Below are positions 9,329-25,013 of a stretch of DNA of 64,000 bases, piece by piece. A program made the translations under genes and the position numbers. The notes under the pieces are model-generated. The model was not told the DNA's origin and made no database searches. It worked only from the letters and a program-made list of their open reading frames with translations. Each line of letters opens with the position of its first letter. Positions within the stretch are counted from its first letter, which is position 1. This DNA comes from an uncultured Verrucomicrobiota bacterium (GTDB taxonomy: Bacteria; Verrucomicrobiota; Verrucomicrobiia; Limisphaerales; CAZZJO01), in assembly GCA_964654645.1 (NCBI GenBank), contig CAZZJO010000034.1, positions 42,086 through 106,085 of the forward strand. Reading direction: 5' to 3'.

Positions 9329-12300
9329 TTATTCGAATCGGTTGTTGAAATCGTGAGGGAATAAAGCTGTTCTAAGTGAACGGAATACTGTAGTGGTTGG
9401 TAATAAGTCGCGGTAGACCCGTCCTTGGCTAAAATCCCATCTTAGGTATACAGACCCACTAATGTCGCTGTGTGGCCATTCAATTTGGATTCTAGTGCCA
9501 AATTCTAACCTGGATTGTCCGTTCACCCATTTTTCGATAGCCACACCTGCGTACACATCATGTTCTATGTAATTGTTTTTTCTGTCTGAATCGGCGAAGA
9601 AATATTTTGCGGCATATCCAATTTCGGTTCGGGCAGGGTAGATTAACTGTTGCCAAGTTGTTCTGAAACCAATGTTATCTGGGCTAAGGTCCTCGTTACT
9701 GGTTAATCTGAATCCTGTTTTGAGGAAGGTGTCGATCCATGGTCGGTAGGAGTAATCCATATTTATTGCATAACCCCATTTGTGATCCGCCCGGTAGCGG
9801 GTAAACAAGTCATGATCTATGTAAGTGAATGGCTCTGCCTTAGAGGTATCCAAAGTTAACCAGCGACCAAAGACCGTTACATATGGATGGAGCACGCTTT
9901 TTCTAGTGAGGTTGTAAAGGGGACCGATTTGGAATGTCGAGTGGATGCTACCTTCCCAGCGGCTTTCATGGTTTTCAATATGGCCGGTGTAACCAGCAAG
10001 GGTTAACCGCCAAGGCAAGTTTATGGTGTTTGGTCTTTGCTCAATATCTTCGCGCAATCCAAAGGTTGTATGCCCGTTATAATGGAATCGGGCGATGCCT
10101 TCTGTGGCAAACCAGGTAGTTTGTGAGAAAGCCTGTTTGTTATAGGCAACCCTAAATTCCCCAAACTTGTTAGGAATCGATTCTTTCCCAGGTTCGAGTT
10201 CATATGGTTTGGTGCGTGCCAAAGACATTAGCACACTCCAAGTACCGTCTTCTTGTCCACCAAGGGGGTAGTAATCGTAGATGTTTGTTATAGCCCTGCT
10301 CTGCAGGACTGGAGTTGTAATAAGGGGTTCGGGTTTTGGTTCAGGGGTACGCATGTTGATCCCTCGTGTGGGGGGGAATGGTTCTGGAGCAATGTTTAGT
10401 ACAGAAATACGGCACCAATCTTCCGTATATCCCTGGCGGGGATAAACTGATATGGATTGTATGTTTTCCGCCTTGAGGACATATTCGTGCACGATCCCAT
10501 TTGTATCCAATCTATCGATCCGGATCAGACACGGTGATTGGCATGCAAAAGTAATTGGGTTTTCTAGCGTGGTGCGATAGAAAAACCATGTTTCAGCAAG
10601 GGAATCGAATGGGATTGAGGCAGGGGAATTGATTCTGTCCTTTTGCAAAGTGCTAGGTTTGATCCGTACCACTTGGTTGGCAATGGGATTTGTTATCCAC
10701 ACAGACACAACATGAAGGCCTGCTGGTAGTGTGGTGGACCATTCAAGGGGAGCAGTAGAATTGGTTATAGTGACATAATTGGTGGTATTGTTTAGCTTTA
10801 TTGCGATGCTTGTAGGATGAAAAGGCAGAAATCCCACAGAGAGTGGTTGGGCCTCGATCTTTAGCTCAGTTTCGTTTGTGATTGTTAGTGTGAGCGTGAA
10901 GATCCGGTTAGCTGTCAAATCGATCCACCCAGGTTGTTTCGGGGGTAAAAGGGCCATTCGCACACGCATACTTGGCTCAAGTGTGGCGTCCAACGGAAAC
11001 GGGATGGGTTTGATTGCTGAAGAATTGGGTTGGTCTGGTGGAATGGTCCAACGGCAGTTTTTTGTTAGCCTGCGGGAATCTGGGTATGCGCTGGCGTCAA
11101 AATTGGTCTGTAGGTAGAAAAGACCATAGGTTCGAGCAATAGGTTCTAAGTCGGGGTAAAACTCTGCTAATTCAAGCCAGAACCATAACTGTTTTGGAGA
11201 TTCAACCTGTGGGAGTAGTTTTACCGCTTCCTGTAGACGGTGTTGATTAATTAGCATGCAGACTTTTTCACTAATGGGCACATTTTGGGGTGGTAAATGA
11301 TCTGCCATGTCCCAAAGTCGCCACTTTTTTATGGCAAACCACTGTTCCTTGTGAGGGAGTTGTTTTAAGTCGTCTATCGTTAATGAGAATGGAGGATTGT
11401 TATTTGGCAATCGCAGTGCTAACCTTAATTGTACGGAAGATGGTAGTGAGTGCATTTTATCATTTAGCCATGTTTCGGGGGGCTTAAATGAAAAACTTTT
11501 GTGGGGAGATGTGATAATCTCCCGGCAAGATTCTGTGGGAACCAACCAAACCTGATTATCTGTTTTAATTTTTCTGGGTGGTTTTGAGTTGAGACTCAAG
11601 GGATTCTCAAGCAAACGGAAAAATTTTTCAGGATCTGGTGCTGGTAATATGCCTGTTTGTAGGGCTGGTTCAAATCGATAAACGCGAATAAGCATTGGCA
11701 AGGAATGAGGACGGATAATGATTTCGTGTAATCCAGGACCTGTCTCGAAGAACCGAACAGCTTTCTGCCCGACTAGTTCGTTAGTTTTTGATGTAAGTTG
11801 GAGGGTAGGTGTAGGTATACACGAGCTTATAGGGATCTTATTTGTGAGATCATATTCTGTAAGCTCAATCCAAGTATCGATGGGATCGGAAAGGGTGGGT
11901 GATAAAAGCGGTCTGATTTCCAGTTTTAATCGGGTGGGGCCAAGGCATTGAATAGTAATAGGAGCGTTTGATTCCGCGCGGAAAAAAGTGGTGTAAATGT
12001 TGCGTTCAGGATTATAGACGAGTTCACCTGCTGCAAAGGATTTGATTAGTTCTGGGGCATCGTACCACAACCATGGGCCAGGAGTATTCGCATACCAATC
12101 TTCCCAAGCTAATAGACCCTCAATTCGTTCGGCTAGGTTTGAGGAGCCGAGTGATTTGCGGATATTGAGGCCTTTTCTGAGGTGGTCTAGCAATTTTCTG
12201 CCGCTTTCACCTGATACTGATAGGTGTTGTTCAGCAGCGGCGAAGTCGTAAAATGTTAAGCTTTTGATCCCAAGCCAATAACTCTTTTCACTAGAGTTTT

Positions 12301-14770
12301 GAAGTTGGTGTACAAGAGAATCAAACAAAGACCACCAATTAAGCCGGGTTGCGGAAACTAACATTTCTGGGAGCGGTTGGCTTTCCGGTGGTAAAAGGAG
12401 TCCTACGGAAAGGAAGTATTCTTCCCGACCGTTTATATAAAACGCTTTTGCCAAGTCGCTCAATGTTTCGGTACTTGGGTTTTTCAAAAATAGTACACAT
12501 TGAAGTTGTTCTAGTTCATCGTAATCTTGAGTCGCAAGCGCGTTTGATTTAAGGATTTGAATTGCTATAGTTGGGACAGAATTCGAAGGTGTTATGAAAA
12601 TTGCGCTACGCGCGTATCGCATAGCTAAGTAATGTTCTTTAAGCTGGTTTAATAACTGCGTAATGCGTTCCATTGCCTCAACTTGGGATTGGCCAACCAA
12701 TAGGAGTGCATTCCACAATTTGAGTGCTTCAATTTGGTATCCGGTTTCCTCTAGGTATTGGGCTTTATGAATTAACTCGGACGCGTTGTCTGTTTGTTGG
12801 TTGGTATGGCTAGGCAGGTTTATCTCCAGGCTGTTTGTAAAGTTGCGCCAATGCGTTTCAATAAGTTTTCGAATGGGATGGAAATGCTGGGCAAGTAAAG
12901 CATTCACTTGGTTGGCGAAGGTTTGGGAATGATTTTGAGGTGTGAGGAGTTTGAGTTTGGATAAGTGGTCTAATTGCTTTAGTGTGTGCAACAGGGTAGT
13001 TTGATTGAGCTGGAGCGGTTTATCGGCTTTGTAGGCGATCGAGACGTAAACCGGTGGACGATCGCGGTCTTGCCAAACACGGATTTTCTTAACGTCTTTT
13101 GGGAGGGGTAGTTCTGTGTATGCAGCTTGGATCCAGTTCAGTGGCAAATCGAACTCTAAGCTAAACAGCGGGATTTGAGTTGGGAACTGGGTGAATTTGT
13201 ATTCGATGACTCGGCTTGTTCCAATGGGTAGTGATGGTTCGTAAAGTATACTTTTTGGGGGCGCGGGAGATACTGTGATTGGAATTGGAGGTTTATCTTC
13301 GAGCTGTACTGAAAAAGTAGTCTCATTAGTGCAGGCTATCGCAATCAGTAGCTTGGAATTGAATGCTCTGTCGGGCAATTCGTACAAGATACCATTAGTT
13401 GAATCTTGAGGCACCGGGAGAAATCGGCCGATAGTTATGTGCCCCTGGATTTGGCGGAAGGTAGGATTGACAATAGGCATGTATTCTTTGAATGGCTCCT
13501 GATGGATTATAGGGCGTACTAGATAGGCCATTTCAAGTGTTATAGCATTGGGTGAGTAGGTTGGTAGTATTTCTCTCCAGAACATGCGGAGATTTTCTGA
13601 TTTACTCGCTGTAAAACTTAGCCGGTTATGATTTGAGAATAGTTCAGAAAACCGCCATAGCAAATCGGCAGCGATAGCCCCGGAATCGAGACTTGTATTG
13701 TCCAATATGAGAGAGTGTGAGATTTTTTCGATCCCATACAGCTTAGACAATGTAAGAGGAGCGTGTTTTTCAAAATAGTTTTTAAATATCAGGGTAGCGT
13801 GAGAACCGTCCACGGGATTGGTATGTGATTGGCAGTCAATGAATGGCAAATTAAGTTTAGTGACCAACGCGGGCGGTATATCCAGTGCGTATCCTGCTAT
13901 TAAGATTGGCGTTGTTGTTTGAATCGCTATGGTGTGTTTGTTTGGTGGTATTTGGATGTAACCGAAGGCGGGGTAGCTCACTGGGATGTAGTTGGTTTGA
14001 GTTTTAGAGTATCTGCTTCGGTCGTAAGTAGCTATTATCGGTAGTACTTCGGATTGATTTCCGTCGAGGGAGATTCTTATAAGCTGCAATATATGTTGTT
14101 TCAGGGGTTCTGTGGTGGGCCAAATGCTATAAACTACCAATTCTACCCATGTAGGACCCTCAGTATTAAATTGTAATTCGTCCCCGGGGTTTAGGAGAAC
14201 AAAAGGGTGCAGCAATGGGGCGTAATCACGCGGGAGTGTAACTTTAGTCCCGCGCAAGGGGATTGGGGTCCGATAAAACGAAGGCAAGGCGATAGTTTCT
14301 TGCATGGAGACAAAAACACCGAGCTCGATTGAGGTAGTGAAGCGGGTGGGGCGTCTAATCCGGATGCACAATGGGGAAAGGTTAGAATTGTAAACTATTA
14401 GGTCTTTGGGGGAGGGGCGAAAGCATTGGCTTGGGACGAAAGCGCGACCATCAAAAGAAAATTCAATTTCCAGGTCTTCTACTAAGATTAAATCCGAGGC
14501 GGCCAATCTGAGGAATGAAGTAGGTGGAAGAAAAATCAAGCTGTATTCACCCGGGTGCAAAGTTATGATATGGTACCCCTTTTTAATAGAGAATGTAGGT
14601 TTTTGCCCCTCAATCCAGAGTGGTTTATCTTCGATATTGTACCAGCGGGTTTGGAGGAGGATTGTCTGGTGGCAGCCCCAAGTAATTGGATTCCAGCAAG
14701 TGACAACACCCTTGCAATAAGAGGTGAATGCAGCAAGTACAATTAATGCGACTCCGAAAATACGGATCAT
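9329..14770 (-). CDS. Giant (about 1813-1821 aa) secreted protein: beta-sandwich modules, TPR-like helical repeats and a C-terminal outer-membrane beta-barrel-like domain. Putative outer-membrane export component.
   Basis: The start at 14770 (MIRIFGVALIVLAAF, signal-like) forms an ATGA overlap with the stop of the upstream gene; the track start is 14794. Helical repeat region around aa 600-905. The last ~315 aa (nt ~9332-10282) are alternating amphipathic aromatic-rich strands (WRLTLAGYTGHIE, LHPYVTVFGRWLTL, WGYAINMDYSYRPW, IGFRTTWQQLIYP, TEIGYAAKYFFAD, SRLEFGTRIQIEW, SVYLRWDFS). Confidence 0.65.
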   Translation of the reverse strand: MIRIFGVALIVLAAFTSYCKGVVTCWNPITWGCHQTILLQTRWYNIEDKPLWIEGQKPTFSIKKGYHIITLHPGEYSLIFLPPTSFLRLAASDLILVEDLEIEFSFDGRAFVPSQCFRPSPKDLIVYNSNLSPLCIRIRRPTRFTTSIELGVFVSMQETIALPSFYRTPIPLRGTKVTLPRDYAPLLHPFVLLNPGDELQFNTEGPTWVELVVYSIWPTTEPLKQHILQLIRISLDGNQSEVLPIIATYDRSRYSKTQTNYIPVSYPAFGYIQIPPNKHTIAIQTTTPILIAGYALDIPPALVTKLNLPFIDCQSHTNPVDGSHATLIFKNYFEKHAPLTLSKLYGIEKISHSLILDNTSLDSGAIAADLLWRFSELFSNHNRLSFTASKSENLRMFWREILPTYSPNAITLEMAYLVRPIIHQEPFKEYMPIVNPTFRQIQGHITIGRFLPVPQDSTNGILYELPDRAFNSKLLIAIACTNETTFSVQLEDKPPIPITVSPAPPKSILYEPSLPIGTSRVIEYKFTQFPTQIPLFSLEFDLPLNWIQAAYTELPLPKDVKKIRVWQDRDRPPVYVSIAYKADKPLQLNQTTLLHTLKQLDHLSKLKLLTPQNHSQTFANQVNALLAQHFHPIRKLIETHWRNFTNSLEINLPSHTNQQTDNASELIHKAQYLEETGYQIEALKLWNALLLVGQSQVEAMERITQLLNQLKEHYLAMRYARSAIFITPSNSVPTIAIQILKSNALATQDYDELEQLQCVLFLKNPSTETLSDLAKAFYINGREEYFLSVGLLLPPESQPLPEMLVSATRLNWWSLFDSLVHQLQNSSEKSYWLGIKSLTFYDFAAAEQHLSVSGESGRKLLDHLRKGLNIRKSLGSSNLAERIEGLLAWEDWYANTPGPWLWYDAPELIKSFAAGELVYNPERNIYTTFFRAESNAPITIQCLGPTRLKLEIRPLLSPTLSDPIDTWIELTEYDLTNKIPISSCIPTPTLQLTSKTNELVGQKAVRFFETGPGLHEIIIRPHSLPMLIRVYRFEPALQTGILPAPDPEKFFRLLENPLSLNSKPPRKIKTDNQVWLVPTESCREIITSPHKSFSFKPPETWLNDKMHSLPSSVQLRLALRLPNNNPPFSLTIDDLKQLPHKEQWFAIKKWRLWDMADHLPPQNVPISEKVCMLINQHRLQEAVKLLPQVESPKQLWFWLELAEFYPDLEPIARTYGLFYLQTNFDASAYPDSRRLTKNCRWTIPPDQPNSSAIKPIPFPLDATLEPSMRVRMALLPPKQPGWIDLTANRIFTLTLTITNETELKIEAQPLSVGFLPFHPTSIAIKLNNTTNYVTITNSTAPLEWSTTLPAGLHVVSVWITNPIANQVVRIKPSTLQKDRINSPASIPFDSLAETWFFYRTTLENPITFACQSPCLIRIDRLDTNGIVHEYVLKAENIQSISVYPRQGYTEDWCRISVLNIAPEPFPPTRGINMRTPEPKPEPLITTPVLQSRAITNIYDYYPLGGQEDGTWSVLMSLARTKPYELEPGKESIPNKFGEFRVAYNKQAFSQTTWFATEGIARFHYNGHTTFGLREDIEQRPNTINLPWRLTLAGYTGHIENHESRWEGSIHSTFQIGPLYNLTRKSVLHPYVTVFGRWLTLDTSKAEPFTYIDHDLFTRYRADHKWGYAINMDYSYRPWIDTFLKTGFRLTSNEDLSPDNIGFRTTWQQLIYPARTEIGYAAKYFFADSDRKNNYIEHDVYAGVAIEKWVNGQSRLEFGTRIQIEWPHSDISGSVYLRWDFSQGRVYRDLLPTTTVFRSLRTALFPHDFNNRFE

Positions 14771-15642
14771 TGGTGAGACACAAAGGAAAACCATTCGGCC
14801 ATGAGCTGGCGTATGAGAGCGTTTGTGTACAACATTTCTCTGGCAGGCCTTGCTATTTCAGTATGAATGAAGCGGGCGTTTGGAAATTGGCGTAATGCAG
14901 CAGCTTGGGCATTGCGTGTTCCTCCGAGCACTGAAGTGTCGTAAGGGTATGCCGCTACAATAAACCCGGTGATATCGGAAAGTGCGTATGCATAGTTTGT
15001 GAGCCAATTTGGTGGCTTGTTGGTAGCGGCGCTAAGCACTACGTCTGCGTTTAATTCGGGGTAGTTACTGGGTGCGAAACCATGAATTTGTATCACCCTT
15101 CCTGTGGGACAGACATATGCAAATGATGTGGTGAAGGACTGGAAATAGGTACCGTCCATGTGCGCCATATCAGCGAGGGTTCGGGTGACAGTTGCTACTG
15201 CTAGAGCATGAGCGCTGCTGTTTGTGAAAAGATGCAATGCAATATATCCAGTGTAAAGGTCGTTTTTGGGATGCGGTGCTTGGATTGCTAAAGGCCAGTT
15301 GCTTGGTGTAGTGGGGCGGAAGAGATAAAACCCGCGACCTGCTTGGTTAGTTACAGGTTCGGTAACAAGCCAGTATGATTGTCCGCCGTATTGTACGGTT
15401 TGCAATTGAAATCCTAAGGCCCCCCATGCTGATTCTAGTTCTGAGGTCAGGTTTGTTATAGATAACATTTCGCAAAATAGCGCCGAGGCGGTTTCAAGCT
15501 CAGTAGTTGTAGGTGCATAATAGTTCGTATTATTGGATATCAGCTGGCGAAGTAGTTGATGGAGATCGACTTCTTCGGCCTGGCTGATGGCTGTTATGAC
15601 TACCGTCGTTGTAACTAGTAGTCTTAAGTTTAGTTTACGCAT
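14767..15642 (-). CDS. Secreted 291-aa protein. Tentatively a metal-dependent amidohydrolase of the PghP/DUF867 (poly-gamma-glutamate hydrolase) or N-formylglutamate-amidohydrolase-like fold.
   Basis: Signal peptide MRKLNLRLLVTTTVVITAISQA/EE. Motifs AIQAPHPKNDLYTG, VIQIHGF and FIHTEIARPAR resemble the PH(x)GGIExGT, hhhHGY and hQLEhs motifs I recall for PghP-type enzymes. It is a paralogue of a module found twice in the 1067-aa neighbour. Confidence 0.45.
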   Translation of the reverse strand: MRKLNLRLLVTTTVVITAISQAEEVDLHQLLRQLISNNTNYYAPTTTELETASALFCEMLSITNLTSELESAWGALGFQLQTVQYGGQSYWLVTEPVTNQAGRGFYLFRPTTPSNWPLAIQAPHPKNDLYTGYIALHLFTNSSAHALAVATVTRTLADMAHMDGTYFQSFTTSFAYVCPTGRVIQIHGFAPSNYPELNADVVLSAATNKPPNWLTNYAYALSDITGFIVAAYPYDTSVLGGTRNAQAAALRQFPNARFIHTEIARPAREMLYTNALIRQLMAEWFSFVSHQ

Positions 15643-15645
15643 GGC

Positions 15646-18138
15646 TTAATAGATGGTTTCGATGTCCGCAGAAATTTTTTCTGATTGTGGAAGTGTAATT
15701 CGCGAGAGGGATAACCAACGCGGTGATTCAGACACCGTGTGGATCTCGATTTCATATTCTCCTGCGGGGACATCTTCATTTACAGGGAACACGAAGGATA
15801 AGCCTTCGTCAAGGTAGATTGATTGGCCTATTATGTAGGAAAGTCCCTGGTTTAAGGTTGAGACCACAGTTATTTCGCGCTTGGGTAGTGAGACTTCGGT
15901 GAATGGTCCATATCCTTGGTATTTAAGCCCCTTAAAGCTTAATTTAAATGCACAGGGTGAGTTACTGGCAGTCGTTGGGGAAAAGATCCTAAGTACAATT
16001 AACTCTGGCTGTGAACTGGCTTTTGAGTACTTAAATTTAAGTGTATTGGTTTGCACTTTTAAGCAGTAGCGCAGAGTGTACAGTTCCAAATTCTCGCCTG
16101 TGGAATCAGGCGAGACGTAATTAACGAAAGCACGGAGCCCGGAAGGCGTACCCATAATAGCGAGTTTGTGTATCCCTGGAGATATCCGGGGCATTCGGAT
16201 GATAGCTGGCAGGTTAGGCAAAGGTTTGTTAAATATGATTTGCTCGTCTAAGATGACACTTACGGATCCCGTGTATGCACTGGTACCTAGCAGTACTAGT
16301 GTCGGTTGTATAGTTTCTTCCTGGGGCGGACTCATGAAGGTTAAGAGGCTGTTGGTAATGGTAAGGATTGGAACGAAGACAAATGGGAGGCTGTGAAGTC
16401 TGTTGGTGTCTCTAAGCTTCGCAGGGCAGAAAACTAGGTTCCCAGGCATGGTGGACTCCCTTAGAGTCAGGGATTCCCAGTCATACAATCCGCTTGCAAT
16501 CAACTGATTAAGCACGGGGGGCCTAGGTTGAATAGCGACGATCTGGGAGAGTCTTTGAAGGCGTCGTTCCAAGGAATCTATTGGTCTAATAGTGAACCAG
16601 GTGGGGTGTTCCGGTGAAAGGAGCCCCGGCAAGAATTCAGCGGGGAATAGTGACTTTTTGGGTAGTTCTCTAGGTCTCGAGTATGCGTTAACCAGCACGT
16701 TTGATGTGTTAGCTTTGATGCGTACCCCTGTGACGTTGGTGGGCAGAACAAAACATAGGGATTGGGGGTCTGTTACTTTTAAGATAGCAGCTTTTGTTGC
16801 AATGAAATCGTATTGTGACACAGGGTTGGTGATTGTGACAGTCCCTGTATTTATGACGTATCCGGTAGAGTCAAGAAGTTGATAGATAACCGAAGGGGTT
16901 GGGTGTGGTTTTTCATTAGTTTTTGGGGGTACCAGGGCGCGAAGGTCCGCTCTAAATAGGGTGGGGTTAAACCCATCGTGATGTATGGAGAACTCGATAG
17001 GTTTTTGCTCGGGGCAAGCGAAAGTTAGAATTCTAGGCTGAGTGGGTGCAATCATATTAGTTTCGTGATCCACACATTCAATTAGCTGCCAGTATGTTGG
17101 TGTTGAGGAACGGATTTCGATGAGTCCTAATTCCGTTGGGGCGGGTAATGTGAAGGTTTTGCCCGAGGATACATATTGGTTAGTTTGCGGGTCCCCTATC
17201 GGCCAAGGATACCACGTAACTGTATTTGTGACCAAGATCGAGGAGGGTACAGAAGCGTCTTTGATACCATATAGGAATCGGACTCGTACGTGATTTGTGA
17301 CTGGTAGCACAGCGACTGTGTTTGCGTCAGATAATACACCTGGGGGCAACCACTCCTCAAATGATTCCAACCCGGAAAGATCGTCGCGTATGTAGATAGT
17401 TACGCTTTTATAGTCTTTTTTTGGTATGCCTTTAGGGGCTACTCCGGCCCAGTGGAACCGCAGCAAGTTAGCTTTTTCGGTGGGTGAGATAAGTTCAATT
17501 GGGTGTACATTTCCACGGGCGAGCAATTGTTTTTGAGAGTAACTGAGCCTATTCCACAGATATGCAGCTTTACGTTCGGGGATTGGTTTACGGCCGTAAA
17601 GCCTTACTAAGACTTGTTTTACATCTGGATCAGCTTTAGAAAGCCGTATTCTAAGCAGTCTTGTATTCTTAAACTTTGGACTATCGAGATTGACAATCCA
17701 CAGGGTACTGCTCAAAGGTATCAAATCTGGTGCGAGGAGATAGTTGGCCGGAACGAAGATTCCGGAAGATCCTTCGATGAACCCGCGTGGTTCGGATTGG
17801 AAGTAATAAATCCCTTGTGCATTGGTATGGTTTTGGCTTGCCAACATTTGGTATTCAATGGAAAAAATCACCTGGATTGCTTTGTTGGAAAGCAGATCTG
17901 CGGTGACGATTGGATTGCAAATCAGCTTTAGTTGGTTTGCCTCTTTTGGGAGGTCGAATTCAAGCCAACGATTTGTTTGAAGGAAATACGCGGTGCTTGC
18001 GAGGGCTGGTTCAGTTCTAGGGATAGTAAATCGGTGGGCAACAATCCAGACACGGATTTGGGGAATAATTTTGAGTACGATCCAAATTACTGCAATGATT
18101 GCCAAGATTAGGAACCATTTGTTACGACGGATACGCAT
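15646..18138 (-). CDS. 830-aa membrane-anchored, predicted periplasmic beta-rich protein of unknown family. It shares modules with the 1821-aa protein.
   Basis: Single N-terminal TM helix (WFLILAIIAVIWIVLKII). No recognisable enzyme motifs. Recurrent strand motifs (LTFACPEQKPIEFSI; SPGIHKLAIMG; PAGEYEIEIH) are also present in the 1821-aa protein. There are 1-nt and 3-nt gaps to the flanking genes. Confidence 0.6.
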   Translation of the reverse strand: MRIRRNKWFLILAIIAVIWIVLKIIPQIRVWIVAHRFTIPRTEPALASTAYFLQTNRWLEFDLPKEANQLKLICNPIVTADLLSNKAIQVIFSIEYQMLASQNHTNAQGIYYFQSEPRGFIEGSSGIFVPANYLLAPDLIPLSSTLWIVNLDSPKFKNTRLLRIRLSKADPDVKQVLVRLYGRKPIPERKAAYLWNRLSYSQKQLLARGNVHPIELISPTEKANLLRFHWAGVAPKGIPKKDYKSVTIYIRDDLSGLESFEEWLPPGVLSDANTVAVLPVTNHVRVRFLYGIKDASVPSSILVTNTVTWYPWPIGDPQTNQYVSSGKTFTLPAPTELGLIEIRSSTPTYWQLIECVDHETNMIAPTQPRILTFACPEQKPIEFSIHHDGFNPTLFRADLRALVPPKTNEKPHPTPSVIYQLLDSTGYVINTGTVTITNPVSQYDFIATKAAILKVTDPQSLCFVLPTNVTGVRIKANTSNVLVNAYSRPRELPKKSLFPAEFLPGLLSPEHPTWFTIRPIDSLERRLQRLSQIVAIQPRPPVLNQLIASGLYDWESLTLRESTMPGNLVFCPAKLRDTNRLHSLPFVFVPILTITNSLLTFMSPPQEETIQPTLVLLGTSAYTGSVSVILDEQIIFNKPLPNLPAIIRMPRISPGIHKLAIMGTPSGLRAFVNYVSPDSTGENLELYTLRYCLKVQTNTLKFKYSKASSQPELIVLRIFSPTTASNSPCAFKLSFKGLKYQGYGPFTEVSLPKREITVVSTLNQGLSYIIGQSIYLDEGLSFVFPVNEDVPAGEYEIEIHTVSESPRWLSLSRITLPQSEKISADIETIY

Positions 18139-18139
18139 T

Positions 18140-21100
18140 TTACCAGTCCAGTACCGGGGTTCGCAGTTTAAGAAAATTTTTTATTTTTTCTGCTTCTGTG
18201 GTTCCGAGGGTTGTTTCTTGGATATCGATGTATCTTGGGCGGAGGTTAATAACAGCTGGCAGAGCGTGATGGTTGTGGCTAATTAGTAGGTAAAGTTGTC
18301 TGGTTTGCGTGTCTAGGGCTGGAGTGAACGAGTAGGAGGGCCAGTTGGACACTATTTGCGTTAAGAGGGTTATATCCATCGTAGCCACGTACTGTAGGAG
18401 CTTTTCGCGGAGTTCCCGTGGCAATTTTGTCTTTAGCCCTTGTGTTAATCGGTCAAGCAAAAGACGTTCAACGTCGCATTCTATTGGGTTCAGGTCTATG
18501 TTTCTAAATTGGACTAGTATTGGATAGTTTTCTTGGGGTCGGAAAGCCTCCCGGAAAAATGGTGAGAGCCAAAGGGTAAGAAGGTCTTTGTTTATGGTTT
18601 GATTTAGGTAAAGTGCTTGAGGGGTACCGTATGCTTCGTAACCAGCCGATATTAATGATCCGTCGACGAATTTGTAGTCAAACTTAAGTAAGTTGAAATG
18701 GTGAAGGAACTTTTGGATGAGTGCTGAATCTGTTTGCTCTTCGGACGTGCCGGTAGCACTGCTAATGAGAATTTCGGGGATGTTGGTAGTAACAATTTGC
18801 GGTGAGTATCCGCGACATTGAATTACAAGCTTGGGGGTGCTTTTTGATTCCCGAAGTTGGACTTGATGGACTAAATTAAATAGGGTGCTTGGGTTCAAGG
18901 GGTTTAATACATCGGCCATCCCAGCTGGATTTGCCGGGTTGTGTATGCCTGCGATTGATAGATTCTCTGCTTCAAGTTCTTGCATTAAGAATACACCAAA
19001 TTCGAGGGTATTCATTTCAAATAAGGGCCGTGGTACCTCAATAATGTATGGTTGCCGTTTGCCGGCTCTGAATACGTATGTGCCCCAGTACTTTTTTACG
19101 GGGGATTCATCCGGTTCGGTAACCACAATGTATGGGGACTGGGTTTGTAAATCCCAAATGGAAAATACCCTGTAACCTATTACGTTAGCAGACAGATTGA
19201 GCGCAACCAACATCTGGTTGTGGAGGAGTTCTGCTCCAAATTCCTTCCCGCTTACTAAGTCCATCAGAGGTGTAAGCACTTCTTTATCGATGTAGAGTAA
19301 TTGTGCAGGAGTGGGAGCTTGATATAAACCGGTTCCTCGTTTGGGCAGATTACGTTTTTGCTCTAAGAGCCAAGCGGCGAGTGAATTGGTAAGCGCCATA
19401 GTTTGTTGGTACGAGGCGAGAGTCCGAGTTGCAAATTTAGCCCTTAATGTATTTGCATCCTTTTTACTGAGCCACAATTCCGCAAAGCCACCGCGTGAGA
19501 TTTTTTGTTGGACGTTTGGCGGGGGGCCCGGTTGCCAGACCAATTGTATCTCTGTTTCAACAAGCTCCTGCAGTTTTTTAAGCGGGAGATCTTTAGGTAA
19601 TTGCATTTTGATCCATAAAAAAGTAGTTTGCTGCTCCCCACTGCGTGAGCCAAGTTGCGAGGAATCAATGGGACAACGAATTTGGAGAGTATTACCTCGT
19701 CCGAAGTTTTGATGAAATACGTGGAAGAATGTGTACGGGTTGGCCAGAATGTCTGAGGATCGATCTTTGTTTACAAAGCGTCCTGTGCTACTAATAGCAA
19801 GGGCTCCACAATCTAACGTGGAAAATAACTCTATGCCTGCTTCCATTGTGGACCATTCATCCAATGGGGCGGGTACAGAAATTAGGAGGCCTTCTGGATT
19901 GTTGAGGTTAATGATAAAGTGGCCCCATCCTTGATTCTGGCCATCTTCGTGAATCCAAAGGAATTTGGATTCGATCGTTTCTATAGTATAGTGGACCTGC
20001 TCCAAAAGACTTTGGACTTCTTCGAGTAATTCAGGTTGGCCAGTTTGGAGGTATTTTTTGAGTTGTTCCATAGCGCTACGGAAATAGTTAAGCTGGGCAG
20101 GGGTAGGCGGTGAGTAGGTTTCAGGGATAAGCTTCTGGTACATGTCTACTTTTTCGTTGAGGAGGGTATGCTGTAAGTCTCCTTTAACGAGTTTGAGGGG
20201 GGCAGTTACACGAGGGGGGCGTGGTGTCGCTAGTGGTAATGAGCCAAAAACCATAGCGAGCCATAAGCCCAAAAAGTTTGCCCCAATAGCGGCAAGCAAG
20301 GCTGTTTGAAGCACAGACCTAGTAAGACGGATCGGGATTTGTTTGCTATGCATTTTTATGGCAATGAGGCTAGAAAGGAGGTATGCAAAACCGTAGTAAT
20401 CGCTAATGGTAATTCCTGGGGCAACATGTGGGAGGATGTATCCGAGGCATAAACGGTAAAAGTAAGCAACGTTAAAGAACAAGAGGACCTTCCGTGGCCC
20501 TTCCATTGTTAAGCCACTAAAGAGTGGGGTGCGTAGAAGCCAAGAGCTGATAAATAGAGTAACAAACGCTTCAGTGACAGTACTTAATATTCTTACTGGT
20601 TCGTACCAGAGCAATCCCAAGAGAGCAGGGATTAAAATCCCGCTATAATCAAGACCGTACCTGAGGTTCATTCGGGATGCAATAAAGCCTGCGATAAGGA
20701 GGATAATGTAGGACTTAGGACTGGCGGCAAGTGAAGCTGCCACGTCCGAATACATGTAGGCTATGTGGCCTATCGTAAAGTTAGTCAAGGTCATTAACCC
20801 ATATCGAACGATAAGGTAGGTGATCCCAGTTGTGATAATGAAAGGTGGTAAGCCTCGCCATAAACCGCTTTTCCAAAATTGATTTGCAATCAACGCTGAA
20901 ACGACTAACCCAAAGCTCCTAAACCATTCCTTATAATCAAGGGTAAGTCCTAGCTGGCTTTGCATCCATTGTGCTAGGTGTGGTAATGCATATCCGTCCA
21001 CAGTAACCCTGACAAATACAGCGCTGAGCAAAAGTGCGAAAAATCTGTCTCGCCCGAAAAAGCTGCACCAGGGTGCAAAGCGGGGCAAGCATTCTGACAC

Positions 21101-21343
21101 AAGCCAAACTAAGCTATAAGCAATGATACCTTCTACCACCGTTATTATCGCGCAGATTGGGTTCAAGTATATAAGTGGCACGAGATAGCCTGGGACAACC
21201 AACCCAGAATATGTCCATCCGAAACGCAGGTTTAAAAGGGAAATTACGATAACCCCTATCCAAACTGTAGTGACGACAGATTCACGTAAGCTTCCTTCAG
21301 GGAATATTGGGATAGGGAAAAGGTCCATATAGAGGTGAGCCAA
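18140..21343 (-). CDS. 1067-aa fusion: two tandem PgsC/CapC-like membrane domains, an extra TM helix, and a duplicated ~200-260-aa soluble module
   Basis: aa ~25-185 carry SGLVVPGYLVPL, FGRDRFFALLL and FRSFGLVVSALIANQFWKSGL. These match PgsC GLVVPGYLGLV, YGRRKFAAMLI and FRGIGIIVPGLIANTIQKQGL (recalled). A second, more divergent copy spans aa ~210-340 (YSGILIPALLGL, GPRKVLLFF, YLLSSLIAIKMHSKQ). The start is TTG at 21343 or ATG at 21328. Confidence 0.8.
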   Translation of the reverse strand: MAHLYMDLFPIPIFPEGSLRESVVTTVWIGVIVISLLNLRFGWTYSGLVVPGYLVPLIYLNPICAIITVVEGIIAYSLVWLVSECLPRFAPWCSFFGRDRFFALLLSAVFVRVTVDGYALPHLAQWMQSQLGLTLDYKEWFRSFGLVVSALIANQFWKSGLWRGLPPFIITTGITYLIVRYGLMTLTNFTIGHIAYMYSDVAASLAASPKSYIILLIAGFIASRMNLRYGLDYSGILIPALLGLLWYEPVRILSTVTEAFVTLFISSWLLRTPLFSGLTMEGPRKVLLFFNVAYFYRLCLGYILPHVAPGITISDYYGFAYLLSSLIAIKMHSKQIPIRLTRSVLQTALLAAIGANFLGLWLAMVFGSLPLATPRPPRVTAPLKLVKGDLQHTLLNEKVDMYQKLIPETYSPPTPAQLNYFRSAMEQLKKYLQTGQPELLEEVQSLLEQVHYTIETIESKFLWIHEDGQNQGWGHFIINLNNPEGLLISVPAPLDEWSTMEAGIELFSTLDCGALAISSTGRFVNKDRSSDILANPYTFFHVFHQNFGRGNTLQIRCPIDSSQLGSRSGEQQTTFLWIKMQLPKDLPLKKLQELVETEIQLVWQPGPPPNVQQKISRGGFAELWLSKKDANTLRAKFATRTLASYQQTMALTNSLAAWLLEQKRNLPKRGTGLYQAPTPAQLLYIDKEVLTPLMDLVSGKEFGAELLHNQMLVALNLSANVIGYRVFSIWDLQTQSPYIVVTEPDESPVKKYWGTYVFRAGKRQPYIIEVPRPLFEMNTLEFGVFLMQELEAENLSIAGIHNPANPAGMADVLNPLNPSTLFNLVHQVQLRESKSTPKLVIQCRGYSPQIVTTNIPEILISSATGTSEEQTDSALIQKFLHHFNLLKFDYKFVDGSLISAGYEAYGTPQALYLNQTINKDLLTLWLSPFFREAFRPQENYPILVQFRNIDLNPIECDVERLLLDRLTQGLKTKLPRELREKLLQYVATMDITLLTQIVSNWPSYSFTPALDTQTRQLYLLISHNHHALPAVINLRPRYIDIQETTLGTTEAEKIKNFLKLRTPVLDW

Positions 21344-21442: not shown

Positions 21443-22117
21443 CTATGTGGATGGGTGCGGTTTTTTTATTAGTTCGTAAATTTTTTCGGCTAATTGTTTT
21501 GGATGGACTGGTTTGTTCAAAAAAAGCTCTACTCCCAAAGCTGCTGCTTTTTGTTTTATCTTTGGGTCCTCCACGGTTGTAAAAACCAGAATGGGGCTTG
21601 AGTTTTGATATTCTTGCCTTAGCCATTGGATGAATCGTAGACCGTCCATTACCGGCATTAGTAAGTCTACCAAAATTATGTCGGGTTGTCTCTTCTTAAT
21701 TATTTCTTGGGCAGCGCGCCCGTGTTCAGCAAATATGCAATCGAACCCATTGGACCCAAGGGCTTTTTCAAGTAAACAACGCAAAACGGCGTCGTCTTCC
21801 ACGATTAGCACTAGTTTCCGCTCGTTTTTTTCTGGGTTGGCGGAAATCATTCCTCCGGCATGGGTTGATTCAAAAGAACTAGCACCGAGTGGCTGAGATT
21901 TACTTTCAGGTGATTTTACATCGGTTGTGCTTTCATTAGTATTAGCTTGAGCTGGTGGGGAGGGAAGATTAATTGTGTCCAGCTTTTGGACATTCTCTGC
22001 CCTTTCTTTAGACGAGGCACTACACGGCAGACTTTCGCTTTTTGCCGCTACTCCCATGTTGTGTTTGGCTTTTTTATGTTTATCCAAAAGGGTTTGATCT
22101 TCAAACTTGTTGCTCAT
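21443..22117 (-). CDS. Response regulator, receiver domain only, with a ~95-aa low-complexity N-terminal extension
   Basis: KLVLIVEDDAVLRCLL...PDIILVDLLMPVMDG...LFLNKP carries the canonical acidic pocket, phospho-acceptor Asp and conserved Lys. No output domain is present. The start codon is uncertain (M1 or M21). Confidence 0.8.
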   Translation of the reverse strand: MSNKFEDQTLLDKHKKAKHNMGVAAKSESLPCSASSKERAENVQKLDTINLPSPPAQANTNESTTDVKSPESKSQPLGASSFESTHAGGMISANPEKNERKLVLIVEDDAVLRCLLEKALGSNGFDCIFAEHGRAAQEIIKKRQPDIILVDLLMPVMDGLRFIQWLRQEYQNSSPILVFTTVEDPKIKQKAAALGVELFLNKPVHPKQLAEKIYELIKKPHPST

Positions 22118-22316: not shown

Positions 22317-25013
22317 CTAGGCTTGCTTTGAGATTGTTTGGAATAAACGTAGTTTTAAGGAGATCAAATAACCTTTGCCCACAGTGCTTTTTATATCAAT
22401 TGCTCCGCCCCAATCGCGTACCCAAATAGTTGCATTCCGTAGGAGTCTAAACTCTTCGGAAGTGGGATCATCAGGCGATGTTAAGATATCACGCAAAAAT
22501 TCCTCGGGCATCCCAGAGCCTGAGTTAGAGAAGGTGAACGTAACGGTTGTGCCTTCGTCTCGGATTTGAATACAGATCTCGGAATTTTCGGCAGCATCTG
22601 CAATGAGTAGTCGCAGTATTCCATCGAAAGTTGTTGTTAACTCTACTGGATTTGCTAGTACTTGGACCATGACTTGTGGTGAGTCGATTTTGAAGTTTAT
22701 TCCTGATTCTGCTGCTTTCGGAGTAAGTTGCGTGCAGACTAATTCAAGAGTTGTTAGGGCATCAATGGGAAAAAGCTTCATTGAAGAGGTGTCGACGCGT
22801 GGGCTTAGATATTTTTGGCATTCCCGAAGGATTTGAACACAGGTATCAACTTTTTGTTGTATAGTTTCTAACAAGGCAGTCCGTTCTGATGGTTGGGTAG
22901 AATCAGATTCCAAAAGTGCGGCTGCGAGCTTAATAGCGGACAGGTGATTTCTAAGGTCCACACCGAGTCTGTCCGCTACTATACCTTTTAAGCTTGCCAA
23001 TGTTGCCAGCGAGGTAGTTTCAATTAACTCGCATATAATACCCCTAATATTTGCATGTGCATACTTGAGATGGGTTTCGCGTGGATTGACCAATGGGTAA
23101 ACCCGGAGGAGAAATTGTCGATCTTCTTGTGAGGGTAAAGTAAGGGATCGAGACGCGCTGGAATGTTCAATCAAGACGTTTTGCAAAACCGTCCTTGCTT
23201 CATTGGCATTTTGATCTAAAAGCCAGGTAAGAAGTTCGAATGCGGTGAATCGTTCGGTAGGGAAATTAGCTTGCATGAGAAGCTGTTTTGCGGGTGCATT
23301 GATTTTAACCAGGCGTCCCCAAAAGTCGAATACAAAGGTGGGTATGCTTATTTGTTCGTATACGATTTCAAGGATTTCGTAGTATTGAGCAAGGGACTCG
23401 GTGGCTCTTACCAACTCGCTGTAGACGGGGTTGTTGGTTTCACTTGCAAGCCAATTTGTAAGCCGAACCCCAAACTTCGGCCGCTGCTTCTCTGCTTTGT
23501 TTGTGTAGATTGTTCGTGCAATTTCGTATGAGAGGCGCAAAAGAAGTGGTTCTAGTTTTCGGGGTGGCACTAGTCGGATTTTTTCTAGTCTGACGATCCA
23601 AATACCGATGAGTTTTCCGTCGTAAATTAGAGGGCAAATAAAATCGGTCTCCATTTCTTGGGCAGGGCCAAGGATCTTGTGCGCTAATGTTGGTGATTGG
23701 TTAGCTATAGCTTGTTTATAAACTTGGGAACCGAGATCAAGATACTCAGGGGCTAAATTGTCATCTCTAAAGTTGTAGAATTTGGTGGGAATCAATTTTT
23801 GGGTTTCTCCATTTCGCTCGAGTACCACAAAACGCTTCAGGTTAAAATTTTCTTTTAAGAATGAGGCCAGGCGGTCCCACCAACCGTTGGGGGACACATT
23901 TTTTTGAACGCCAACGCGATCTTCAATTGCGCTAATGGTTCGGAGGCGAAGTTCGTTAATAGCAAGTTGGGCTAATCGGTTTTTGTGAGCCAGTTCTAAC
24001 GTTGATTGGATAAGTATGGCTAAACACAGAGAACCGGAGGGTAACCAATAGTTGGCATACGCAAGAAGCGCCAAGCTTGTTAAAAGTGTAGAGACTATCA
24101 AAAGAAAGGTGGTTCTTAATATTGTCCATCCGCCCATGTGGGTAGATGTGAGTGATGTGGCAAACGTTATGCCCACTATTACAATAAAAAGTAGAATACC
24201 TTTTAGCTCACCGATTATTGAATGTGAGGCTAACGTATGGAGTGCGTATGCTTGGAATTCCACAAGACTCATTGCGTTTTTATTGCGGGCAAGTGGAGTT
24301 TCGATGCTTTTCAACGTAGGGTCCATCCCAATAAGCACAATTTTGTCTTTAACCAAGCTTGGTAGCAGATCCTTTTGTATTACGCGCGCGATGTCTAAAT
24401 TAGGAATTTGTCCGTATATTTTGAAGTTGACTAGAAACGAAGGCGGGAGCGGGAAATTAGAAACATTTCGCATGGATAATAGCGCTGCTTTGGCTTCCAG
24501 AGTAAGTGCATTCGTGCCGGTGATGTTTAACCCAGTGAATTGTTTTCTATAAACGCCGGCTTCCGGAGGGGCGAGATATACGGCGCCCCAATGTAAGTTT
24601 AACCCTGTTGCTTGGGCAGGCCAGGGCGCGAGCTCGAATCGGTCAGGGTCTTCAGGAACAGCGGATGCGAGCCTGCCAAAAACCACAACTTGTAGCTGAG
24701 CAGCGTATTCAAAAAAGTCCCGGCTACATTGTGTTGGCACGAAGTTAAACGCAACAACACGGGCGTTGGCTCCCATAAGGGTTTCTAGGAGTTGGATAGC
24801 TTCCTTATCGCTGAGTTGTTGTGGATCATTCACTCGGATAAAGACTACGGTGGGGGTCTGGTCGCTAACTCGGGCAGCAAACATTAATGCGGTGTCGTAG
24901 AAAAAACCATTGAGGCTAGAGAGCCACCCTGCCTGGGTCAAAATGTAGATTAAGAGGGCTACAAAGATTGGCCCTACTAACCAAGGTCTTTTTGTTTTTC
25001 CCAAAGAAGTCAT
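22317..25013 (-). CDS. CHASE2-domain sensor histidine kinase (CHASE2, TM helices, GAF-like, PAS-like, HisKA, HATPase)
   Basis: N-terminal TM helix, then a ~250-aa extracytoplasmic region followed by three TM helices, which is the CHASE2 layout. H-box VDLRNHLSAIKLAAALLES. C-terminal ATPase-like region ending GGAIDIKSTVGKGYLISLKL. The G1 box is degenerate (SNSGSGMP). Confidence 0.75.
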   Translation of the reverse strand: MTSLGKTKRPWLVGPIFVALLIYILTQAGWLSSLNGFFYDTALMFAARVSDQTPTVVFIRVNDPQQLSDKEAIQLLETLMGANARVVAFNFVPTQCSRDFFEYAAQLQVVVFGRLASAVPEDPDRFELAPWPAQATGLNLHWGAVYLAPPEAGVYRKQFTGLNITGTNALTLEAKAALLSMRNVSNFPLPPSFLVNFKIYGQIPNLDIARVIQKDLLPSLVKDKIVLIGMDPTLKSIETPLARNKNAMSLVEFQAYALHTLASHSIIGELKGILLFIVIVGITFATSLTSTHMGGWTILRTTFLLIVSTLLTSLALLAYANYWLPSGSLCLAILIQSTLELAHKNRLAQLAINELRLRTISAIEDRVGVQKNVSPNGWWDRLASFLKENFNLKRFVVLERNGETQKLIPTKFYNFRDDNLAPEYLDLGSQVYKQAIANQSPTLAHKILGPAQEMETDFICPLIYDGKLIGIWIVRLEKIRLVPPRKLEPLLLRLSYEIARTIYTNKAEKQRPKFGVRLTNWLASETNNPVYSELVRATESLAQYYEILEIVYEQISIPTFVFDFWGRLVKINAPAKQLLMQANFPTERFTAFELLTWLLDQNANEARTVLQNVLIEHSSASRSLTLPSQEDRQFLLRVYPLVNPRETHLKYAHANIRGIICELIETTSLATLASLKGIVADRLGVDLRNHLSAIKLAAALLESDSTQPSERTALLETIQQKVDTCVQILRECQKYLSPRVDTSSMKLFPIDALTTLELVCTQLTPKAAESGINFKIDSPQVMVQVLANPVELTTTFDGILRLLIADAAENSEICIQIRDEGTTVTFTFSNSGSGMPEEFLRDILTSPDDPTSEEFRLLRNATIWVRDWGGAIDIKSTVGKGYLISLKLRLFQTISKQA

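Follow-up and report, generated by a model that had tools for sequence, protein, structure and literature searches.

A signal-peptide protein with a predicted amidohydrolase active site and its two degenerate paralogues on a double CapC protein in a diderm operon

To our knowledge, poly-γ-glutamate (PGA) synthesis is understood almost only from Bacillus PgsBCAE, and a diderm bacterium would have to make, guide and release such a polymer across two membranes. The locus described here lies in a 64,000-nt stretch of contig CAZZJO010000034.1 from an uncultured Verrucomicrobiota bacterium (hereafter the window). Seven co-directional minus-strand genes in this window, with short gaps or overlaps between them, encode in order a CHASE2 sensor, a response regulator, a CapC–CapC fusion protein of 1067 residues, an 830-aa protein, a 291-aa protein with a signal peptide, a 1821-aa protein and a HEAT–PgsB protein. 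A preliminary description of this DNA had proposed that one domain family occurs three times in the operon, once as the 291-aa protein (14767..15642, minus strand as for all features below, ATG start) and twice within the 1067-aa protein (18140–21343), and that the signal-peptide copy alone keeps residues of a catalytic type. The question is what the 291-aa protein does and why its relatives are fused to CapC. We consider it probable that the 291-aa protein is a periplasmic metal-dependent amidohydrolase that trims, sizes or releases the polymer of the operon, and that the two fused domains are pseudo-enzymes that hold this polymer.

Three copies of one domain

The two repeats of the 1067-aa protein occupy residues 396–662 (repeat 1, 19358..20158) and 663–940 (repeat 2, 18524..19357). 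Pairwise similarity to the 291-aa protein is borderline, with BLASTP E-values of 5e-4 for repeat 1 (residues 397–556) and 9e-3 for repeat 2 (residues 738–865), and the two repeats match each other at 3.7e-10. The comparison of profiles by hhalign is decisive: an 85-sequence alignment of the 291-aa family matches a 38-sequence repeat-1 profile at E 1.2e-20 and the repeat-2 profile at E 1.5e-21, and repeat 1 matches repeat 2 at E 5e-38. A hidden Markov model (HMM) of four orthologues of the 291-aa protein, in whose alignment the same His, Asp, His and Glu are invariant, was run against all open reading frames (ORFs) of 85 loci, where it matched the CapC fusion in nearly every locus (E down to 2e-17) and found the small protein itself in 62 of the 85 (E 1e-40 to 1e-138). 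Furthermore, the order of secondary-structure elements is identical in the AlphaFold2 models of all three copies. The three-fold homology, which had first been seen by eye, is beyond doubt, and the two repeats are ancient duplicates of the hydrolase domain. The motif strings quoted in the preliminary description are all in place, at residues 41, 89, 116, 182 and 257 of the 291-aa protein and at 410, 486, 552, 620, 674, 737, 766 and 838 of the 1067-aa protein, and the residue numbers it gave for H124, H187 and E262 hold.

Modelled in full by AlphaFold2 (pLDDT 81), the 1067-aa protein shows both repeats and an extra C-terminal domain (residues 941–1067, 18140..18523), which is not part of the alignment with the 291-aa family and is modelled as strands at 1005–1033 plus helices. 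Foldseek with this whole model returned nothing significant, the best match being the aspartoacylase-family structure 2qj8 at E 0.22; the fold assigned to the repeats therefore depends on their being homologous to the 291-aa proteins and on their secondary-structure elements following in the same order. All three copies also carry an N-terminal helical add-on with the motif Y-x-x-P-T-x-x-E-L, which spans residues 25–77 of the 291-aa protein and residues 396–450 and 663–722 of the 1067-aa protein and is absent from PghP.

The three copies differ in their conserved residues, which we counted in 85 diverse members of the 291-aa family and in 38 sequences for each repeat. In the free protein, G104, H124, D128, T131, H187, G188, L239, H260, E262 and R268 are present in 85/85, and P123, R154, D158, Q185, S204, G240, T242 and N244 in above 90%. 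A second, independent set of 55 orthologues taken from genome loci gave the same picture of conservation. These residues fall into four motifs: Q121-A-P-H124-P-K-N-D128-L-Y-T131 (15250..15282), with predicted metal ligands 1 and 2; R154-x3-D158-x2-H161 (15160..15183), a predicted substrate-binding loop in which R154 and D158 are each found in 84/85 and H161 in 54/85; Q185-I-H187-G188-F189 (15076..15090), with predicted metal ligand 3; and H260-T-E262-I-A-R-P-A-R268 (14839..14865), with the predicted catalytic Glu and an Arg six residues on. This active-site set is a prediction from the alignment together with strand and helix positions in the model. H260 is an extra invariant residue that, on the alignments, is peculiar to the 291-aa family.

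In the fused copies, all three His and the catalytic Glu are lost. H124 corresponds to A492 in repeat 1 (34/38) and R772 in repeat 2 (37/38), H187 to R556 and R844 (each 38/38), H260 to E622 (38/38) and to S, V or I at 923, and E262 to W, V, I or F at 624 (W624 in the window) and to W925 (38/38). The acidic residue at the D128 position is kept, as E496 in repeat 1 (38/38) and as E or D at 776 in repeat 2 (38/38), and so is the equivalent of D158 (D531 and D811, 37/38 each). The equivalents of T131 and R268 are kept mainly in repeat 2; for R268, the counts are 26/38 for R at 630 and 38/38 for R931. The His/Asp/His/Glu set is thus confined to the signal-peptide copy, as had been proposed, and the replacement of its His and Glu in both repeats holds, with no His in either. 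The replacing residues had been misread at one position, where the by-eye register was one proline off: in the profile alignment H124 pairs with A492 and R772 and not with Leu. The fused copies have gained an invariant Arg at the H187 position. New residues have become fixed in them, and they are under a constraint of their own and not simply in decay.

Predicted fold and resemblance to PghP

To place the 291-aa protein among known enzymes, we rely first on its AlphaFold2 model, built on the 85-sequence alignment (pLDDT 94.1, pTM 0.89). Three N-terminal helices (27–75) and a β-hairpin (79–94) precede an α/β core in this model; H124 and D128 lie between strand 118–122 and helix 131–140, H187 at the end of strand 182–189, and E262 in the last strand, 257–264. 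Predicted ligands 1 and 2 thus sit between a strand end and a helix start, ligand 3 where a strand ends and the Glu on the final strand, and these positions of the motifs fit the fold class found by structure comparison. Foldseek against the PDB gave 39 matches at E ≤ 1e-3, and nearly all of the best 22 are zinc amidohydrolases with a carboxypeptidase-like fold. The best are the Shewanella putative metallopeptidases 2qvp, 3b2y and 3ieh (E 9e-7 to 8e-6), and Francisella REP34 (4oko), a Burkholderia carboxypeptidase (4b6z) and the aspartoacylase-family structure 2qj8 are also matched. The list further includes PghP (3a9l, E 1.8e-5), the PGA hydrolase of phage PM1 (21dc, E 3.5e-5), PghL with bound PGA (5onj, E 1.4e-4, target-normalised TM-score (TMt) 0.55, rmsd 4.9 over 217 columns) and the N-formylglutamate amidohydrolase (FGase)-like protein Atu2144 (2odf chains, E 7.5e-5 to 2e-4, TMt 0.46). 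Matches in BFVD include FGase-annotated proteins (E 9e-6 to 2e-4, TMt up to 0.64 for a pithovirus protein with rmsd 4.1) and a PGA hydrolase of phage Bobb (E 1.1e-4).

As modelled, the 291-aa protein has a carboxypeptidase-like amidohydrolase fold, the fold that the preliminary description had named: M14-like, PghP, PghL and FGase-like structures are all returned. The 291-aa proteins form a separate family within that fold class; in our reading, they are distantly related to enzymes of the PghP/FGase type and work in the same way. Other candidates were considered and rejected. A peptidase of the M23/LytM type, suggested by the HxxxD and H-x-E/H motifs, does not agree with the α/β model, and no M23 structure is among the matches listed. 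Matches to purine nucleoside phosphorylases and MTA nucleosidases (Foldseek E 3e-4 to 1e-3) reflect a general phosphorylase/hydrolase-like fold only, without the His/Asp/His/Glu set. PDB profile matches of the N-terminal helices to protein A repeats, and of the GRGFY...PH stretch to the Musashi RRM, were set aside as chance.

The sequence comparison with PghP used a profile of 10 sequences, comprising PghP of phage phiNIT1 and nine diverse phage homologues. Aligned by hhalign with the 85-sequence family alignment, it is collinear over 149–177 columns, although the match is weak (E 0.025, probability 2%). The alignment pairs H124 with H40, D128 with E45, T131 with T48, H161 with H78, H187 with H103, E262 with E165 and R268 with R171. 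The motifs that had been quoted for PghP and related enzymes (PH.GGIE.GT, hHGY and QLE) are indeed present in PghP, as SPHAGGIEVGT, FHGY and VQLE, and stand in register with APHPKNDLYT, IHGF and HTE of the 291-aa protein. In PghP and PghL, zinc is bound by H40/41, E45/46 and H103/102; mutating H40, E45, H78, H103 or E165 abolishes the activity of PghP; E165 is the spatial equivalent of Glu270 of carboxypeptidase A; and R171 anchors a carboxylate of the bound PGA in PghL (PMC6506827). The in-register alignment thus covers every residue whose loss kills PghP activity and R171 as well, which we count in favour of a hydrolase. At E<1, an HMM of PghP detected 37/138 family members and none of the reversed sequences; 10 of these members were below 0.1. 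PF05908 is the sole enzyme family that recurs among the weak Pfam matches listed, in 3/85 and 2/55 relatives (best E 0.0044–0.0061).

The question of family membership is answered differently by sequence and by structure. PF05908 (Gamma_PGA_hydro; formerly DUF867, MEROPS M86) is the family of PghP and PghL (YndL). The 291-aa protein stays below the sequence threshold of this family, and in Foldseek its model shows the open α/β fold with a mixed central sheet of PghP and PghL. Its H124, D128 and H187, each conserved in 85/85, align in register with the zinc ligands of PghP, but the acidic residue is an Asp and the spacing is one residue shorter, so that they are putative ligands; E262, in strand 257–264, falls on E165, R268 on R171 and H161 (54/85) on H78. 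For FGase (PF05013), no sequence match was found among 140 members at E up to 1 or 10, among the matches listed, and the agreement is at the level of the fold (2odf and the FGase-annotated BFVD proteins). The FGase family is also the nearest structural neighbour of PghL (PMC6506827). For peptidase M14, the HxxE motif is missing, H-x3-D standing in its place, no Pfam match to Peptidase_M14 was obtained, and the fold matches superpose at rmsd 9–13 Å. Of the known families, PghP/PghL (M86, PF05908) is the closest, and FGase and M14 are its neighbours in fold.

Operon setting and proposed role

The polymer on which such an enzyme might act is suggested by its neighbours. The membrane part of the 1067-aa protein (residues 1–368, 20240..21343) consists of two CapC/PgsC-like halves and one further transmembrane helix; it matches Pfam PF14102 in two stretches, above the cut-off (E 4.6e-36), and the protein also matches TIGR04011 PgsC (E 9.7e-15). 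The 1408-aa protein at the other end of the operon (5094..9320) has a weak N-terminal HEAT match and a PgsB-like amide ligase domain (residues 723–1056) that matches TIGR04012 at E 3.6e-61. A PgsB-type ligase and a CapC membrane protein are therefore encoded together, as in a PgsBCA-type operon, and the setting is a poly-γ-glutamate-type synthesis operon of unusual architecture. No match to the PgsA/CapA families was found among five operon proteins in Pfam and NCBIfam scans, and the 291-aa, 830-aa and 1821-aa proteins matched no Pfam or NCBIfam model.

The 291-aa protein begins with what reads as a typical Sec signal, MRKLNLRLLVTTTVVITAISQA, followed by EE (signal peptide at residues 1–22, 15577..15642), and an N-terminal hydrophobic 12-mer is present in 79/85 family members. 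For the 1067-aa protein, means over 38 homologues are 4.0 K+R in the 17 residues that precede the last transmembrane helix and 1.3 in the stretch after it; by the positive-inside rule, this would put the repeats in the periplasm, where the enzyme is also predicted to be. A link to the 830-aa protein, which has an N-terminal membrane anchor (15646..18138), comes from gene fusions. In P0175 (1157 aa), the 830-aa protein is fused to a hydrolase domain, the former matching at BLASTP E 9e-54 over residues 18–817 and the latter lying at 864–1125, and a fused ORF of the same kind is present in locus L048 (1158 aa, 13185–16661). Such fusions are Rosetta-stone evidence that the 830-aa protein and the hydrolase act together, which makes the former a probable hydrolase partner. 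P0191 (1124 aa) is also a single polypeptide of an 830-aa protein and a C-terminal hydrolase domain. A further protein, P0080 (636 aa), has no similarity to the 830-aa protein and seems to consist of two hydrolase-type domains in tandem, with the PH-type motifs PHPLNDMYTP and VPHPVYELGT and the nearby H-I-E motifs RFVHIE and RFLHIE; judged by these motifs, both of its domains may be active, unlike the pair of dead domains fused to CapC.

A pattern scan in which each GTDB species was represented by one genome found relatives of the CapC fusion protein in at least 365 species. Those closest to the window are from Verrucomicrobiota (51% identity); other carriers include many Gammaproteobacteria (Competibacter, Methylococcaceae, Thiomargarita, Parabeggiatoa and Legionella londiniensis among them), as well as Zetaproteobacteria, Desulfobacterota, Magnetococcales and Planctomycetes. 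A word-indexed protein search with the 291-aa sequence gave only one relative, 97% identical, and a 4-sequence profile only four; the family was uncovered by walking the operons around homologues of the 1067-aa protein and by an exhaustive HMMER search of 1.84 billion representatives, in which 2974 clusters reached E ≤ 1e-3 and 2134 of them E ≤ 1e-10. In the operons around the 1067-aa homologues, a gene for a protein of 287–375 aa occupies the same slot, and the hydrolase gene follows the CapC fusion gene at ~2.4 kb, after the 830-aa gene, in 62/66 loci with enough downstream sequence. The remaining four operons (L003, L009, L026 and L079) are otherwise complete and come from a metagenome contig, Methylococcaceae, Candidatus Thiomargarita nelsonii and Planctomycetia; in L003, the 830-aa-like gene is directly followed by a ~1700-aa gene. 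Six-frame HMM scans of these four found only the two repeat domains and no hidden or frameshifted hydrolase copy. Our literature searches returned no description of this operon; a preprint on Cloacimonadota describes a different CapB–CapC–PgsF cluster.

Homology of the three copies, the distribution of their conserved residues, the fold class, the conserved operon and the fusion to the 830-aa protein are what the analysis shows; the metal, the chemistry, the substrate, and the compartment and binding role of the repeats are inferred, and the following mechanism is a proposal. The PgsB-like ligase and the double CapC protein would polymerise and translocate a polyamide, most probably a γ-glutamyl polymer, which would be the substrate of the 291-aa protein. 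The two periplasmic pseudo-hydrolase domains would take up the nascent chain in grooves that descend from the active site of their ancestor and guide it without cutting, and Arg in place of the metal-binding His would line these grooves in a manner suited to a polyanion. The free paralogue, exported to the periplasm by its Sec-type signal peptide and held nearby via the 830-aa protein, would cleave amide bonds and thereby set the chain length or release the polymer. A metal, probably zinc, would be held by H124, D128 and H187, E262 in the last β-strand would be the general base, and R154, D158, H161 and R268 would bind carboxylates of the substrate. The released polymer may then be exported through the 1821-aa protein. 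Such trimming or release would be analogous to the roles of PgdS or CapD for Bacillus PGA and of BcsZ, AlgL and PgaB for polysaccharides.

Several results weigh against this proposal. No family member scores above any Pfam, NCBIfam or PDB sequence threshold. The hhalign score with PghP was reached by 1/100 column shuffles and 16/100 block shuffles, so the sequence match by itself is no proof of a link to PghP. The second ligand is an Asp with H-x3-D spacing, where PghP has a Glu with H-x4-E and M14 has HxxE. The TM-scores of the structural matches are moderate (0.34–0.55), and PghP is not singled out over FGase or M14. At 207 bits, the PgsB-like domain falls slightly short of the equivalog cut-off (222.7), so that the polymer is not necessarily γ-PGA, and the topology proposed for the 1067-aa protein comes only from charge counts. 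Finally, the hydrolase gene is absent from the four operons named above. The hydrolase is thus not essential for synthesis; a very common but dispensable accessory is, however, what would be expected for trimming or release rather than for polymerisation.

The alternative that fares best among those we weighed, though we think it unlikely, is an active metallo-amidase that leaves the backbone intact and removes a small acyl or formyl group, a primer or a lipid anchor from the polymer or its precursor. Its chemistry would be FGase-like, and its role would be comparable to the de-N-acetylation by PgaB rather than to depolymerisation. The model matches FGase-type structures as well as PghP (2odf at E 7.5e-5 and TMt 0.46, the pithovirus protein at TMt 0.64), and neither the invariant H260 nor the H-x3-D spacing is a feature of PghP. 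However, PF05908 recurs among the weak Pfam matches listed and PF05013 does not appear among them, and R268 and H161 match the Arg that binds the polymer carboxylate in PghL and H78 of PghP, respectively (PMC6506827). Two pseudo-enzymes fixed on the synthase also fit a polymer groove better than a small-molecule pocket.

Rather less likely is a cell-wall enzyme, i.e. a peptidoglycan amidase or carboxypeptidase (Amidase_3 or M14-like) that opens the sacculus for the trans-envelope machine or attaches the polymer to peptidoglycan in the manner of CapD. The top PDB matches are M14-like (2qvp, 3b2y, 3ieh and 4oko), MurNAc-LAA amidases and lysins are among the BFVD matches (E 1.7e-3 to 3e-2), and the 291-aa protein is predicted to be periplasmic. 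The M14-like matches nevertheless superpose at rmsd 9–13 Å over ~300 columns with TM-scores of ~0.4, the protein has neither HxxE nor a Pfam match to Amidase_3 or Peptidase_M14, and the strict linkage to PgsB/CapC together with two paralogous domains on the synthase points to the polymer.

We give slightly less credit still to the idea that there is no hydrolase at all, with His, Asp, His and Glu binding a structural or sensing metal and all three copies serving as non-catalytic scaffold or polymer-binding modules. The two paralogues show that the fold can be kept without catalysis, and the activity of the 291-aa protein is a prediction. Against this, its invariant set maps one-to-one on the residues found by mutagenesis of PghP, including the general-base Glu (PMC6506827), a purely structural site would need neither E262 nor R268, and retention in 85/85 of the free copies with complete loss in the fused ones is the usual mark of an enzyme/pseudo-enzyme set. 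A chance or compositional similarity of the three segments, which the pairwise BLASTP values of 5e-4 and 9e-3 might have allowed, is already refuted by the profile–profile E-values (about 1e-20, 1.5e-21 and 5e-38), by the HMM matches in nearly all loci and by the identical order of secondary-structure elements.

A trimming, sizing or releasing amidohydrolase with two polymer-holding pseudo-enzymes remains our best explanation, and the preliminary interpretation is supported wherever computation could reach it. A bolder claim can be built on it, which we offer tentatively and would not yet call probable: the operon may encode a previously undescribed trans-envelope secretion machine for a polyamide of the γ-glutamyl type in diderms, with at least 365 carrier species that range from Verrucomicrobiota to Legionella, Competibacter, Thiomargarita and Planctomycetes. 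The periplasmic part of its synthase would have arisen from its own duplicated and inactivated depolymerase, the dead domains would form a non-cutting guiding groove that replaces PgsA, and the live paralogue, docked via the 830-aa protein, would set the length of the chain or release it.

The remaining genes and features of the operon were also inspected. The gap between the 830-aa and 291-aa genes is 3 nt only. On the other side, the 1821-aa protein (9329..14794), which has an N-terminal hydrophobic segment and is conserved in the operon, has a longest ORF that shares 28 nt (14767–14794) with the end of the 291-aa gene. In the near-identical locus L001, the same protein is called as 1813 aa, i.e. 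with a start at Met9; this start would make a 4-nt overlap of the ATGA type with the 291-aa gene, which suggests translational coupling. In the 1408-aa protein, ~700 N-terminal residues with the weak HEAT-repeat (HEAT_2) match are followed by a hydrophobic segment, the ligase domain and a ~350-residue C-terminal extension; the TIGR04012 PgsB model has only 380 positions, and Bacillus PgsB is far shorter than this protein. Upstream of the CapC-fusion gene lie the genes for the response regulator (21443–22117) and the CHASE2 sensor (22317–25013). As in the window, a CHASE2 protein is encoded ahead of the CapC fusion in L001–L004; an unannotated 889–890-aa protein takes its place in L005 and L096. 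The response-regulator gene is directly upstream of the CapC-fusion gene in the window, L001, L002, L005 and L096, and is not between the sensor and CapC-fusion genes in L003 or L004. The position of the sensor and regulator suggests that a dedicated extracytoplasmic signal controls synthesis of the polymer. Across the 64-kb window, the GC skew is 0.00 to 0.26, zero or positive in all 2-kb bins; the plus strand is thus unusually and uniformly G-rich, although the operon is on the minus strand.

These data provide a testable list of parts: a secreted enzyme with a predicted active site of H124, D128, H187, E262 and R268, two pseudo-enzyme domains on a double CapC protein, and a gene fusion by which the enzyme is linked with the 830-aa protein. 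Since the family comprises ~3000 sequence clusters without a Pfam or NCBIfam model, one biochemical characterisation would annotate thousands of ‘hypothetical proteins’. Its carriers include the environmentally important Competibacter, Accumulibacter, large sulfur bacteria and Zetaproteobacteria, as well as at least one Legionella species. The operon is also a clean natural example of an enzyme/pseudo-enzyme set, and new hydrolases of the γ-PGA type are of practical interest as capsule-stripping or polymer-sizing enzymes.

Comparison with known systems

Among known enzymes, PghP and PghL resemble the 291-aa protein most: the predicted α/β fold is the same, the functional residues follow in the same order at similar spacing, and both groups are tied to a PgsB/CapC polymer system. 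They differ in that the 291-aa family has the extra invariant H260, a signal peptide and the N-terminal three-helix add-on of ~55 residues with Y-x-x-P-T-x-x-E-L. Furthermore, the 291-aa gene belongs to a diderm synthesis operon, whereas PghP and PghL are found in phages or prophages of Bacilli, and the family has two catalytically dead paralogues fused to CapC, which PghP and PghL do not have.

FGase/HutG enzymes (PF05013; 2odf, 2q7s) are alike in fold class and gave no sequence-profile signal among the Pfam matches listed; FGases are cytoplasmic enzymes that act on small molecules. M14-like carboxypeptidases (2qvp/3b2y/3ieh, REP34 4oko, CCP5 and carboxypeptidase A) provide the best Foldseek E-values (9e-7 to 6e-5) and share the logic of His, acidic residue, His and distal Glu, but superpose poorly (rmsd 9–13 Å).

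At the level of the operon, the closest parallels are BcsZ, AlgL, PgaB, PgdS and CapD, each a secreted or periplasmic enzyme that degrades or modifies a polymer and is encoded in the operon for its synthesis and export. The folds and chemistry of these partners are unrelated to those of the 291-aa protein; PgdS is an NlpC/P60 enzyme and CapD a γ-glutamyltranspeptidase. We know of no BcsZ, AlgL, PgaB, PgdS or CapD system in which dead copies of the hydrolase are fused to the synthase. With a score below the Pfam threshold, an Asp as putative second ligand at a shorter spacing, H260 and the helical add-on, the 291-aa protein does not belong to PF05908. We would class it as a new family, set in an operon whose architecture, with two pseudo-enzymes built into it, is also new.

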